DNA of 63,324 bases, counting the filler, from Basidiobolus ranarum (taxonomy: Eukaryota), in NCBI GenBank assembly GCA_040143965.1. It is 35 parts of 35 records of this genome, joined end to end, with 100 filler letters (N's around TTAATTAATTAA, not from the genome) between each part and the next. Parts side by side here need not be neighbours in the genome. Positions count along the whole stretch, not along the records: positions 16,366 to 18,080 come from JASJQH010004491.1; 34 more parts are not named here. The stretch is one strand, 5' to 3'. Under the pieces are notes generated by a model. It saw only the letters and a program-made list of their open reading frames with translations. It ran no database searches and was not told the DNA's origin. Below, piece after piece: positions 8,126-57,909 of the stretch (position 1 is the stretch's first letter; every line of letters starts with the position of its first letter). The position numbers and the translations under genes were made by a program.

Positions 8126-8477
8126 TGTTGAAATTAGGCTCATAGCTACTCATTTTTTAATAGTTAGTTTATTCATGTTCTGATTGTTTTGCACCCAATT
8201 CTGCCATTCAAGGACATATGTTGAATGCACCAATTGATAGAGATATCAATTAGATCACTTTTACTAATTTTCACTATTTTCTCAAAACTACTCCTAATCA
8301 TCTCAAATTTTCACCAATGCTTAACAGGCATGTTTGTTATGATATAAGCATGTCTAATAGTTCTACTTCATATTAAACTAAAAATAGCACATATTCAATT
8401 CAATAAAACTTAAGTGTCTAATTCACAAATCCAACTCTGGTCCAAAACACTTCCAAGTCCCCTAAACACATTTATCT
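8126..8477 (+). repeat. LTR-B shared between an upstream pol end and a downstream gag
   Basis: PPT-like TTGAGTGGCAA before; TGTTGAAA...TTTATCT; PBS AGTTATGAGCTC at 8478-8489. Confidence 0.85.
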
Positions 8478-8508
8478 AGTTATGAGCTCTTGGCTAGCTT
8501 TTACAGAA

Positions 8509-16265: not shown

Positions 16266-16365
16266 NNNNNNNNNNNNNNNNNNNNNNNNNNNNNNNNNNN
16301 NNNNNNNNNTTAATTAATTAANNNNNNNNNNNNNNNNNNNNNNNNNNNNNNNNNNNNNNNNNNNN

Positions 16366-16642
16366 AAATTATTTAGGGAGAAATATTGGTCTGGCCAGGA
16401 TTTGAACCTGGGACCTCCTTCACTCTAGCAAGGTGCTCTAACCACTGAGCTACCAGTCCTTGTATGCTATGCCTATGTAGCTAGGGAACCTTAACCTAGT
16501 CTGTCAATATGTGGTACTTTGGCATTTCAGCTATACAAGCAACTGATTGGCCTTAGACTTTGTGTTCAGATGCAGTCACCATATCCTATATTTTCCTCTT
16601 TGGGAATTACTGCTTGTACCACAAGTCACCAGACTTTCAACA
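16366..16642 (-). mobile_element. Short LTR-like element carrying a tRNA-like cassette (copy 1; 5' end present, 3' end clipped by the contig edge)
   Basis: Starts TGTTGAAAG at 16642, exactly where CMC homology begins (16643); shares ~115 bp with 56204-56323. Confidence 0.75.
16387..16459 (-). tRNA. tRNA-like sequence (pseudo-tRNA; nominal anticodon AGA but short variable arm)
   Basis: GGACTGGTAGCTCAGTGGTTAGAGC...GGTTCAAATCCTGGCCAGACCA, 73 nt. A box TAGCTCAGTGG and B box GGTTCAAATCC intact; mismatches A3:A70 and G31:G39. Confidence 0.85.
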
Positions 16643-17579
16643 AATATGTCATATTTGAAATTCCAAATTTCTTTGATATAAGCTCTTAAATATATTTATA
16701 GAGTTCTTCATACCCCAGGTACAGCTCATATACAACAAAAGTTGGTATCAATATCTCCAGCAAAGTCCACCATTGTGTAAATGTTGCAGAATCAACATTT
16801 ATCCAGCTAACTGGTGGATACCCTGTGATATTGTGCTACTCTGTATTAAGTTCTTCACAGATATCTGCATGGTCAACACCAGACTGAATGTTAAGTTTAA
16901 TGTTCTTCTTCTGTAGCCACTTTCTACTTACTTTCACTACATCTTTCCCTTCTTACTTTTGAAAATACTTTTAAAATTATTACACTACTTTTATTCACCC
17001 CTATAGTGCAATACTGCTCAGGGTGCTTTGTTGTTTTTGGGTAGCTTGTTGCTTGCCTTTAAGTTTGGGACTACTTTCAACACTTTGAAATGTACCAGTT
17101 GAGATTGGAGAGCCATGTATTTATTTGCTGTGGTTGTAAACTGTCAAGAGGTGCAAGGTGATAGAGAAATTTCTACCTTTGGTACTTGTTGAGTGAGAGT
17201 ACTTGGTTGATATGGTAAAATGCCTGCCAAAGTGGTTATTCTATTCTTAGACTGTTCATCAATCAAGTCCTCTGTTGTTGTTGGTTTTTTTCTTTGCTGC
17301 CAGCAGACATCTGCTTGGAAGCCTATTTTGGCTTAGATTCTGAATATACTTGTGATGGCATTCCAATATTTGAATGTCATACTTGATGAATTGAAATAAC
17401 TGATAAACAACTCATCATAAGCTAAAATTGCTACCATTTCCAGGAATATCTTGTCAGTCCCCTGATGACCCATCTGTGATACCATCACAGGATCAGCAGA
17501 AAATATTGACAGGATATAGCTAAAATACCACCCTTACATAGCAGTTGTTCTTTTTTCTACAATATCCCTTGCATACTAC
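16643..17579 (-). mobile_element. Older, internally deleted CMC ORF2 copy plus spacer
   Basis: Diverged homology to the ORF2 C-terminus and N-terminus, joined near 17230. Confidence 0.75.
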
Positions 17580-18229: not shown

Positions 18230-19895
18230 GGTGAAGAGGGCTGGTTTACCAAGAAATGTCGCAAAGTCAATCACACTTCATCTCCTTACACTTCGCTTGT
18301 ACCTACCTTTATTCCTGCTTTTCTTAAATCCCCTGATGGTTTGTTATTCACATTAGTTCTATGATTCTCTCATTATCTTGCTAACCTTTGGGCTGAATAG
18401 ATCCGATCGTATACATCACTATGGATGAAACCAAAAAGACTCTGTATGCTTTGACTAAACGGTCCAACATAGAGGTATTTGATCACGGCCATTAATGCTC
18501 ACCTTTCACTCTCTAATCTCAAACACTTGTTTGTCAGATCATCTTTCTAGGACAGGATGGAGATCAATTCGAGAGAGTAGCTAAAGTTACCAATATCTGC
18601 CAATATGCTTCTCAATTATGCTCCACTTCCCCATTGCTGGATTATAGAACCTTCCAAATAGTTTCCTTACATCCCATCTATCCTTCAGAGTCAAAGTTGA
18701 TTAATCTTGTTGCCATCACCTCTACTGGTAAGTATACTGACTGCAATCCTAATGCTGACTTGGACTTGTTCATTGACAATATATGTTCTACCGTATCTAG
18801 GATGTCGACTTTACTTTACTCATCATAAGCGCGATTTCCGTGGAGTTGGCGCTGTTTTACGCCACGATATCAAGGCACCTACTGGCCTGGAACTTCTACA
18901 CGTAAGACTTCCTCCCAGTTTGGAGACTACTCCCAAAACTATAGGCGAATTCAACCGAAGCCTTGGGGCTTCCAACATCCATGTTACCTCTTATTCTAGT
19001 GGTGTTCTTTTAGCTGCCAATTCAGTTAGTGATGAGATGGACTCACTCATGGGTATGGCACCCGATTCCGGAAAAATCAGTCAAGCAGGAATTCAAAATC
19101 AGCGTGGTCCCTTGGTCGAGTTCCATGGTTCCAATACCATCGAAGGCAAGACTTGGGCTATTACTGAAATAGATAATCCATTCGAACAAGTTGGAAATGA
19201 TGATGAACGAGTCCTTAATGAGTTAGCTACGCAGCTAGCTTATCCACCAAGACGTTTCCTTGTCTTAACCAATTCTGGTATCAATATGTTTGTTAAGCAG
19301 CGCCCTATCGACATCTTAAATCAGCTTTTGACTAGCCCTTCTACACAAGAAACCGATATATTGTCTTTCATTGAAAACTATGGCAGAGCACAAGTTTGTG
19401 CTATGTGTTTGGCTATTATTTGTGGACACCCCTCAGTAAACAGCTCTGGTTTAGATAGCCTGATGAGTTCTCAGATTGGCAAGAATCAGAGTAGCATTTC
19501 GAGCGCACAGAAAGTTTTCTTTGAATATGGTGGAAAGCCAATTCTAGTTGATTATCAATCAAACATTATTTCCAGCAATGATGTAGGCAGACCCTTGTTC
19601 ACCCCCGAGCCTATATACAGTGGCCGTCACGATGGCTTGGCTCTATTTTTGGCTCGCCTAGTCAATCCCATCTGGAAAAAGCCTTTCATCATCAAAGTCG
19701 GGAATGAGTATGATACTGCAGTCTCTATTTCAGTATTGTCCTCGATTCAGCAGAACCTTGCTTCTCTTAGAGAATTCTTAGAAGCAAATCCCCATTTCAC
19801 CTCCAGACCAGATTCATCACAGTTCATGTTTTCAGATCTACAGACTGGACGTAGAGAGGCTGAAGCATGGCAAATGGAGCAACAGTCTTTATACA
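18230..19895 (+). CDS. NUP170: Nucleoporin Nup170/Nup157/Nup155, internal fragment; exons 18230-18338, 18401-18474, 18538-18727, 18801->19895
   Basis: EGWFTKKCRKVNH, LVAITSTGCRLYF, LHVRLPP, NELATQ...PPRRFLVLTNSG, RPIDIL, YGRAQVCAMCL, YSGRHDGLALFLARLVNPIW. Three GT-AG introns of 62-73 nt preserve the frame. Confidence 0.93.
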
Positions 19896-43448: not shown

Positions 43449-44025
43449 NNNNNNNNNNNNNNNNNNNNNNNNNNNNNNNNNNNNNNNNNNNNTTAATTAA
43501 TTAANNNNNNNNNNNNNNNNNNNNNNNNNNNNNNNNNNNNNNNNNNNNAAGATTTGTACTGCAGCTAAATGACTGCAGAAATCCACTGATTAAGAAGTGG
43601 CTAGCCACTCAATCTTCAAATGCACTATCATGCCAGAAATTGACACAAGATGATCCTGTTGTCTCTGAGTTAGCTTTACAGCTGCATGAAACAAAACAGC
43701 CTAAAATTGTTGCTTCAGACTTCCAGCTAGACCTTTGGAAGCAATACCCTGCCTCTAAGACATCTTTCTTGATTCCCATTATTCCAGGTTTTTGTCCTAT
43801 TTTCCATCTAATTTGTACTGAGTACCTTCCTTTCTGCTTACCACCCCTGCCCCTTAACACTATATTTACATCCTCTGAACTTGATTACATTGGTCATCAA
43901 GTTAAGTATGGATATGATCCAGTATTGTCACAATATCTTAAAAGATTAATGTCTTGATTGTCACTTTGTTTAGATTAGTATTTAAGCTAAATAAAGTCAA
44001 CACCATATGGTGCTTTTCATCCTCC

Positions 44026-44856
<831 letters not shown>

Positions 44857-56103: not shown

Positions 56104-56203
56104 NNNNNNNNNNNNNNNNNNNNNNNNNNNNNNNNNNNNNNNNNNNNTTAATTAATTAANNNNNNNNNNNNNNNNNNNNNNNNNNNNNNNNNNNNNNNNN
56201 NNN

Positions 56204-56323
56204 CAATATAGGCATAGCATACAAGGACTGGTAGCTCAGTGGTTAGAGCACCTTGCTAGAGTGAAGGAGGCCCCAGGTTCAAATCCTGGCCAGACCAATA
56301 TTTCTCCCTAAATAGTTTCAATA
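56204..56323 (+). mobile_element. tRNA-carrying LTR-like element, copy 2 (3' end)
   Basis: Ends TTTCAATA; copia RNase H resumes at 56324 (GATATACC, cf. the uninterrupted copy at 32520-32570 minus). Confidence 0.75.
56225..56297 (+). tRNA. tRNA-like sequence (pseudo-tRNA), copy 2
   Basis: 72/73 identical to 16387-16459; A and B boxes intact. Confidence 0.85.
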
Positions 56324-57124
56324 GATATACCTTTCTCCATAGTGAAGCAGCCATATCTTGGAATAGCAAGAAACAACCCACCATAGCACTTTCAACAACT
56401 GAAGCAGAATACATGGTGGCATCACACACAAGAAAGGAAGCTATGTGGTTAAGGAAGCTATTCCAAGACTTGGGCATTATTCAAAGTTCACCTACCATAA
56501 TTTTCAAGGATATTCAAAGTTACATTTCTTTAGCTAAAAATCCCAAATTTCACACTAGAAGTAAGCACATTAATATTCAACATCACTTTGTTAGGGAAGC
56601 TATTGAGAATAAGCACATCCAACTGGAGTACTGTCCAACTGAGGACATGATTGCTGACATCCTTACTGAACCATTACCAAAGCCAAAATATGAAGAATTA
56701 AGACTTAAGTTAGGATTATGATATATGAATATTTAGTTGAGTGGGAGTGTTAAAGTTTATTGTCATTATCATATTTGTTATCTATACCTTTATACACCTA
56801 ACTATTTCATATGTCACATATAAGTTAGTTAACATTAATTAGTCAAATATCACTTAGCTGAAAATTGGAACATATGTTATATATATATGTGAATATTGTG
56901 AGATTTAGCAATTCCATATTGGAAATTTCAAACTTGCCCAAATTGCCCCATAGATAGCTCATTTTACTCCCACTGATGTTCTGAACACAACCCCCCTGTT
57001 AGTTTTCTGTATTTTGATCAAAATGTAAAATTGCTTTATTTCTGGACAATAAATAATTATCTGACAAAGCTATTCACAACTCCACTTTTCTAAAGTTCCC
57101 CCAAATGGCCCATATTTTCCAATA
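56324..57124 (+). mobile_element. Copia-C RNase H, PPT and 3' LTR-C (56748-57124)
   Basis: RSKHINIQHHFVRE, MIADILT; TTGAGTGGGAG; ends TTCCAATA. Confidence 0.92.
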
Positions 57125-57909
57125 GAAAACCCTAAAAAAGTTTGCAGACTCTGGAAAACACTATATGGCCTAAAACAATCTCCAAGAGCTTGGAATAGCA
57201 AGAAAGACACTTTTTTGAAAACACTCAAATTCCAAAAGAGTAATGCTGACTATAGGATCTACTTTAGGCCAGATAAGACAGGCATAGTTTATTAGCCTTA
57301 CATGTAAAAGATCTTATCAAAGCAACCAATGACTTGCAGACTTTGGAGAAAACCAAATCCAACTCATCTGCCAAATTAAAAATATCTGATCTTGGTGTAC
57401 TGATGTACTATCTTGCAATCCAAATTAAGATAGATAGAACTACCAAAAAAATAACTTTAAACCAGTCTAAGTACATCCTAGATATACTAAAGAAGTTTCA
57501 AGTGGAAGAAAGTAATCTAGTTTCTACACCAATGGAGACAAATATTAACTTGACCAAAAATGGCTTAACTGAGACTTTTTTAGATTGAAATGAAAGCCAA
57601 AAATTTCCTTATCAATTTATTGTTAGTAGTCTGATGTCTATCATGCTTAGAACTGTTGAAATTAGCATTGCCTAAACACCTATATAGTGATATATAACTT
57701 AGTACTTAGTAATCTCATAACTCCCTAAGATATTATCAATTATTCTCAATCATAATTTACTTAGAATATTTTTACCAACTTAGAAGTTCTCAGATATATA
57801 GATTTTTCAAACTTGTGATAGGAGCCCCACACTTTGCACACATGTTCCTGGGACCTTCCTTAACACATTCTACATGTTAGTTTGCTTACATCTTGACAAA
57901 ACTATAAAA
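57125..57909 (+). mobile_element. Copia-A RT fragment interrupted by LTR-A (from 57654)
   Basis: LYGLKQSPRAWN; TGTTGAAATTAGCATTG. Confidence 0.88.

Follow-up and report, generated by a model that had tools for sequence, protein, structure and literature searches.

An LTR-like repeat with a tRNA-derived module in Basidiobolus ranarum, probably of the Helenus (TRIMp3) kind

Two partial copies of a ~282-bp repeat were found in the studied DNA of Basidiobolus ranarum, and the repeat likely is an LTR carrying a tRNA-like module. On balance, we favor the reading that a single LTR family of the Ty1/copia type, with a degenerate tRNA-derived Pol III module in the layout of Helenus (TRIMp3), has inserted twice, each time independently. 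We infer that the unit is an LTR from its copia-type termini taken together with the insertion boundaries, and it is best read as a solo LTR or as a part of a small element. It seems an even choice whether the element is a non-autonomous TRIM, and its transcription by Pol III, to which the promoter boxes point, is proposed tentatively.

The window, i.e., the whole stretch of DNA analyzed here (63,324 nt, GC content 35.5%), consists of 35 size-sorted contigs (from 1720 down to 1704 bp) joined by 34 identical linkers, situated between positions 1721 and 61620; the order of neighboring contigs is meaningless, and features abutting the N runs are artefacts of assembly or packaging. Nearly all contigs of the window are transposon-derived. 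A fragment of a Nup155-type nucleoporin (18701-19894, plus strand) shows 98% identity, over 51% of the length, to one protein of Basidiobolus ranarum, 71% to a second B. ranarum protein, 62% to a protein of B. meristosporus, and 40% to the next relative, from Umbelopsis; the 98% and 71% matches suggest that diverged duplicate copies may exist in that genome. A fragment of a 2,3-dihydroxybenzoate-decarboxylase-like amidohydrolase (43942-44583, plus strand) has top identities of 73-77%, and its named relatives are all fungal among the 120 matches listed. The relatives of these two fragments thus place the host among early-diverging fungi, as a Basidiobolus-like organism.

Extent and boundaries of the two copies

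Both copies of the repeat are truncated (Table 1). Copy 1 stops at 16366, where contig c10 (16366-18080) ends, ~5 nt short of the predicted LTR end, and copy 2 is cut inside the LTR, where contig c32 (56204-57909) begins. Their homology (16476-16366 vs. 56208-56318) spans 111 nt with 98.2% identity (BLAST) and runs to the last base of c10; the two differences among the 111 shared positions are at 56271/16413, in the variable loop, and at 56315/16369, downstream of the tRNA-like part. Of the four bases that open c32 (56204-56207), two are the same as in copy 1. The 166 nt upstream of the shared stretch are present in copy 1 alone, and the upstream part of copy 2 may be different. As the copies are cut by contig ends and have only 111 nt in common, the ~282-bp unit is composite, copy 1 contributing 277 nt and copy 2 the other 5 nt, and a whole copy is absent from the window. 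The identity of 98.2% suggests that the family may have been active recently.

Table 1. Positions of the two copies, their tRNA-like parts, flanks, and neighboring features in the window.
Feature	Position	Strand	Details	Basis
Copy 1 of the LTR-like unit	16366..16642	-	5' 277 nt of the unit; starts TGTTGAAAG at 16642	BLAST, break-point alignment
tRNA-like sequence, copy 1	16387..16459	-	73 nt, Ser(aga); A box 16452-16442, B box 16408-16398	ARAGORN, Rfam
Flank of copy 1	16643..17165	.	interrupted copy of a repeat family, weak Tnp2/CMC-like	repeat search (I5, I13, I25), BLAST
Artificial linker	16266..16365	.	100 nt, N44-TTAATTAATTAA-N44; separates contigs c9 and c10; not biological	
Copy 2 of the LTR-like unit	56208..56323	+	3' 116 nt of the unit; ends ...GTTTCAATA at 56323	c18 comparison
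tRNA-like sequence, copy 2	56225..56297	+	73 nt, Ser(aga); A box 56232-56242, B box 56276-56286	ARAGORN, Rfam
Flank of copy 2	56324..56721	+	C-terminal (RNase H-type) copia pol ORF, split between ...RSIT and GYTF...	ORF, c18 paralogue
3' LTR of the interrupted copia	56748..57124	+	starts TGTTAAAG after purine tract GAGTGGGAG, ends ...TTTTCCAATA	LTR comparison
Artificial linker	56104..56203	.	100 nt; separates contigs c31 and c32	

A preliminary description of this DNA had reported a 73-nt cloverleaf-like sequence occurring twice with 72/73 identity, with flanks common to both copies, inside a unit of ~282 bp. The repeated sequence and its identity are reproduced by ARAGORN, Rfam, and the alignment. 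The common flanks are present too, but they are short, with 17 nt on the upstream side and 21 nt on the downstream side of the tRNA-like sequence; the contig ends had been overlooked by the earlier reader. The outer boundaries of the unit are genuine, but the unit itself had been stitched from two partial copies, each cut by a contig join.

The family is known from these two copies, both within the window. When both copies were compared with the 35 contigs by sensitive BLAST, no third copy emerged, and the 5' 166 nt have no similarity elsewhere in the window. Exact-pattern scans of metagenome, viral, and prokaryote contigs for the tRNA-like parts and the trailer gave zero matches; these collections probably lack DNA of this fungus, so the scans are uninformative on the copy number. 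A 64-aa antisense ORF (16495-16689) overlaps the 5' part of the element, and a protein search with it produced no candidate.

The 5' break of copy 1, at 16642/16643, is unambiguous according to sensitive BLAST and the break-point alignment, in agreement with the boundary at 16642 given earlier. Six other copies of the flanking repeat (in contigs c31, c7, c15, c14, c20, and c35) all run uninterrupted through the site, and past ...GACAAATT all six continue into a mutually similar stretch of the AGCATTCAAGTGG type (AGTGTTCAAGTGG in c31), at the point where contig c10 switches to TGTTGAAAGTCTGG, the element start being TGTTGAAAG. This flank had been assigned to CMC transposons, of which the repeat family is real but the transposase match is sub-threshold: a relative of the flanking repeat in contig c4 matches Transposase_21 (tnp2) with E=1e-5 and 25.3 bits, below the Pfam cut-off of 28.6, and its tie to c10 runs via c31 (repeat search).

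For the 3' break of copy 2, claimed to be at 56323 and to abut copia RNase H, one informative paralogue is available (n=1), the copia of contig c18, which is 97% identical over 99 nt and is uninterrupted, with upstream coding sequence unrelated to the element (...GAAGATCTA); the remaining copia matches begin 8-31 nt further in and are uninformative on this break. The boundary with copia thus stands, with the exact end ambiguous within 56318-56324. Since the c18 alignment has two mismatches in its first 7 nt and one in the other 92, the element end at 56323 (...TTTCAATA) is favored, with the flank resuming at GATATACC; the T matching position 56318 is also present in copy 1.

Both outer boundaries, therefore, are true insertion boundaries, and as the flanks belong to different transposon families, two separate insertion events are seen. 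Each copy shows one flank only, and from these single flanks one would predict ATATT as the TSD of copy 1 and GATAT as that of copy 2; the 3' flank of copy 1 is then expected to read ATATT followed by repeat sequence of the AGCATTCAAG type, and the 5' flank of copy 2 is expected to end in ...ATCACTGGATAT.

Transposons in contig c32 are nested: the 3' LTR of the interrupted copia (56748-57124) abuts the RT region of another, neighboring copia, in which the RVT_2 domain is found (57065-57588, plus strand). In contig c22, the order is RT, copia C-terminal region, purine tract, and LTR.

Termini of the unit and the resident copia LTRs

The termini of the unit, 5' TGTTGAAAG and 3' TTTCAATA, are the same as those of the resident copia LTR families (TGTTGAA...CAATA), as had been noted in the preliminary description. 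Five copia LTRs start right after a purine tract (GAGTGGGAG, GAGTGGCAA, GGGAGAG, and similar), at positions 8126, 39286, 40846, 53259, and 56748, and their starts read TGTTGAAA or TGTTAAA(A/G); additional solo or 5' copia LTR copies begin with TGTTGAA(A/G). At the 3' side, one copia LTR family ends in ...ACTTTAACA (TTTAACA), shown by six out of seven copies, and a second one in ...TTTTATC(A), shown by seven copies. The LTR family of the interrupted copia ends in ...TTTTCCCAATA, with CAATA in three and CATTA in one of the four informative copies, the fifth copy being cut by a contig end. The terminus of the unit is TA, not the canonical CA, and one resident copia family likewise has TA. The termini form an imperfect inverted repeat (9/12).

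Per-position frequencies in the window are 3.2e-4 for TGTTGAA and 2.8e-3 for CAATA, and therefore, allowing for the slack of seven positions at the 3' side, the probability that both boundaries, which were defined independently, match by chance is ~6e-6. Beyond the termini, BLAST of the unit against the resident copia LTRs reveals zero similarity, and the resident LTRs are ~325-377 bp long vs. 282 bp for the unit.

PBS-like sites of the TTATGAGC type (TTATGAGC[CAT]C) are situated 0-3 nt past copia LTR ends at 8480, 22312, 22978, and 33401 (+). The motif T[TA]ATGAGC has six matches in the window, four of them directly past LTR ends and none beside the tRNA-bearing LTR, where c10 stops ~5 nt before the predicted LTR end. 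[quoted passage not shown] The earlier suggestion that the unit is mobilized by copia or gypsy elements is, from the termini, narrowed to copia.

Contig c5 (8126-8500, plus strand) has a PBS-like site behind an LTR that comes after the C-terminus of copia pol and a purine tract and hence is a 3' LTR; this arrangement suggests two tandem copia elements with one common LTR, or a recombinant.

The tRNA-like module

The tRNA-like genes predicted by ARAGORN in the window number two, and both belong to the repeat. Each scores 58.6 bits with the Rfam tRNA model (RF00005) vs. the gathering score of 29; apart from tRNA, no Rfam family reaches the threshold in the window, and there is no match to 5S. 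The module occupies positions 184-256 of the 282-nt unit and starts 99 nt before the LTR 3' end. The A and B boxes, described earlier as intact, are both found; within the unit, TAGCTCAGTGG (A box) occupies positions 191-201, and GGTTCAAATCC (B box), positions 235-245.

Serine tRNAs (class II) bear a long extra, or variable, arm. The variable region of the 73-nt tRNA-like sequence has 5 nt, and since the call is Ser(aga) without the long extra arm, the sequence probably is no working tRNA. Other features of a functional tRNA-Ser are lacking as well: two stem pairs, 3-70 and 31-39, are non-canonical in the Rfam alignment, and a T-run terminator is absent from the unit. The minimum-energy fold of the RNA is cloverleaf-like, with an energy that shuffling of the sequence matches (z = -0.40 and -0.03). 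A loop of the tRNA-like sequence, CTAGAGT, contains CTA, AGA, and AGT. Judged by these features, the module is probably a relic in which the Pol III promoter signature has stayed intact.

The sense strand of the 282-nt unit has no T runs of at least four, and therefore a Pol III transcript would not terminate within the LTR. Upstream of the tRNA-like part, a CCAAT-like motif GGCCAATCAG occupies unit positions 91-100 (16543-16552, minus strand; 84-93 nt upstream of the tRNA-like start), and a TATA-like motif TGTATAGC, positions 106-113 (16530-16537, minus strand; 71-78 nt upstream). These motifs could form a Pol II promoter, and ordinary transcription by Pol II may take place instead.

Alternative explanations, relation to Helenus, and significance

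The latter possibility bears on a less likely but serious alternative, in which the unit is the LTR of an ordinary autonomous, Pol II-transcribed copia that has acquired a tRNA-derived passenger in R/U5, for instance via an old insertion of a SINE or tRNA pseudogene. It would account for the termini, identical to those of autonomous copia LTRs, for the CCAAT-like (91-100) and TATA-like (106-113) motifs, and for the length of 282 bp, close to the resident ~325-377 bp; besides, the window holds no sign of a short internal region. However, autonomous elements with tRNA-like LTRs are not described by Kojima (2024; PMC10886601), according to whom Pol II is obligatory for the autonomous partners, and no LTR sequence in common with TRIMp3 is expected of them. 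Also, no copia internal region in the window is joined to the tRNA-bearing LTR, a weak argument given two truncated copies. We consider still less probable the possibility that the two loci are unrelated composites, with a ~115-bp tRNA-derived retroposon or pseudogene residing in an unrelated LTR or other sequence in copy 1 and beside a copia fragment in copy 2; the 282-bp unit would in that case be an artefact produced by joining the two partial copies. Only 111 nt are common, and the change from two matches out of four at the start of c32 to 109 out of 111 in the subsequent positions hints that homology may extend no more than 17 nt ahead of the tRNA-like part. Against this, a copia-type terminus is present at both boundaries, CAATA at the 3' boundary of copy 2 and TGTTGAA at the 5' boundary of copy 1; behind the tRNA-like part, the 21 nt up to the contig end of copy 1 are all common; an A-rich or simple-repeat tail is absent; and the 17 common upstream nucleotides do not fit a retroposon transcript starting at tRNA +1.

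The high Rfam score (58.6 bits) and near identity of the copies are what one would expect of a genuine tRNA gene locus that has been segmentally duplicated, but both outer boundaries interrupt transposons where paralogues are continuous, the Ser(aga) sequence lacks the long variable arm and has two non-canonical stem pairs, the unit contains no T run, and the only two tRNA-like matches of the window are the repeat itself, making this explanation very improbable. We would give as little credence to a MITE with terminal inverted repeats TGTTGAAA/TATTGAAA and a tRNA-like passenger: the imperfect inverted repeat (9/12) and the size of ~280 bp fit, but the same termini are found on bona fide copia LTRs adjoining purine tracts and PBS-like sites, and the sole DNA-transposon family near the copies is the weak Tnp2-like repeat of the copy 1 flank. 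A tRNA-derived SINE was considered as well and rejected. The tRNA-like start is at unit position 184 out of 282, with 183 nt ahead of it in copy 1, and there is no A run of at least five anywhere, with a single A run of four at position 49 and the 3' end ...GTTTCAATA; the layout had already been called non-SINE in the preliminary description, and the internal placement of the tRNA-like part and the absence of an A-rich tail on the sense strand bear this out. Similarly to SINE2, the unit is an interspersed repeat with a tRNA-derived A/B-box module; unlike SINE2, its module is not at the 5' end, it has no A-rich or simple-repeat tail, and its termini are those of copia LTRs.

The favored reading, an LTR family of the Helenus (TRIMp3) layout, can be compared with a published description; the name Helenus, given earlier for a tRNA-bearing LTR family, is indeed that of an existing one (Kojima, 2024; PMC10886601). 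According to this description, Helenus elements, known from rust fungi and animals, have in their LTRs a tRNA-derived sequence with the A and B boxes (TRGCY...YGG and GGTTC, respectively); direct LTRs, with mentioned lengths of 120-323 bp, surround a short non-coding interior, the whole element being 311-1263 bp long, with a PBS immediately after the 5' LTR and a polypurine tract immediately before the 3' LTR (Kojima, 2024; PMC10886601). [quoted passage not shown] The origin proposed there is the insertion of a SINE into an ancestral LTR, most tRNA-like parts of Helenus LTRs are reported as probably non-working tRNAs, and Pol III transcription of Helenus is described as proposed and unvalidated; in rust fungi, many of the "genes" predicted as tRNA-Thr-AGT, Ser-AGA, and Sup-CTA are in fact copies of Helenus (Kojima, 2024; PMC10886601).

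The comparison is with this published description and covers, on our side, two partial single-LTR copies. The closest known families are fungal ones such as LTR-1_PTrit and Helenus-n of Pucciniales. As in Helenus, the unit, an LTR by the above reasoning, bears the A and B boxes in a sequence derived from a tRNA; at 282 bp, it lies between the published lengths of 120 and 323 bp; the call is Ser-AGA, and the loop CTAGAGT spans CTA, AGA, and AGT; and PBS-like sites putatively of the tRNA-iMet type directly follow resident copia LTRs. The difference is in the host, the early-diverging Basidiobolus being outside the published list of fungal hosts (Kojima, 2024; PMC10886601). In other TRIMs, Cassandra and Ajax, a Pol III promoter module of a small RNA is also embedded in the LTR, but there it derives from 5S rRNA, whereas the module described here is of the tRNA type, Rfam giving tRNA matches only. 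The resident Ty1/copia LTRs (56748-57124 and the family of 40846) share with the unit the 5' TGTTGAA, the 3' end (...CAATA, ...AACA, or ...ATCA), and a similar length, but they contain no tRNA-like sequence, and the similarity is confined to the termini. A literature search of partial coverage retrieved no second paper on tRNA-bearing LTR elements and no paper on Basidiobolus; one 2026 paper only cites Helenus.

Under the Helenus-type reading, the repeat would be a short non-autonomous LTR element, or its copies would be solo LTRs left behind. The tRNA-like part would have the role of a promoter and would not function as a tRNA, with RNA initiated by RNA polymerase III at this internal promoter of the 5' LTR; it is plausible that the tRNA-like +1, 99 nt from the LTR end, is the start of R and that Pol III would make the genomic RNA. 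The resident copia elements would then reverse-transcribe and integrate the element in trans, their integrase recognizing the common termini TGTTGAA...CAATA. An element of this type would have a PBS of the TTATGAGCCC type 0-3 nt past the 5' LTR and a purine tract before the 3' LTR. It is possible, if somewhat doubtful, that the repeat represents an independently born and recently active Helenus-type (TRIMp3) lineage in Basidiobolus, mobilized by copia via a PBS for the tRNA-iMet anticodon loop.

LTRs of this kind inflate predictions of tRNA genes, as both "tRNA-Ser" calls in the window are the repeat, and they break short-read assemblies, as both copies are situated at contig ends. The element probably is of a known kind (Helenus/TRIMp3) in a fungal lineage where it apparently has not been reported, and the fungus, being culturable, would offer a system for testing whether an LTR element can be driven by Pol III. 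If true, this would be the first LTR element with a tRNA promoter outside Dikarya among fungi. If confirmed, it would extend the range of tRNA-bearing LTR elements from rusts and a few mushrooms to early-diverging fungi, and would support repeated origin of this design wherever copia elements meet tRNA-derived repeats.
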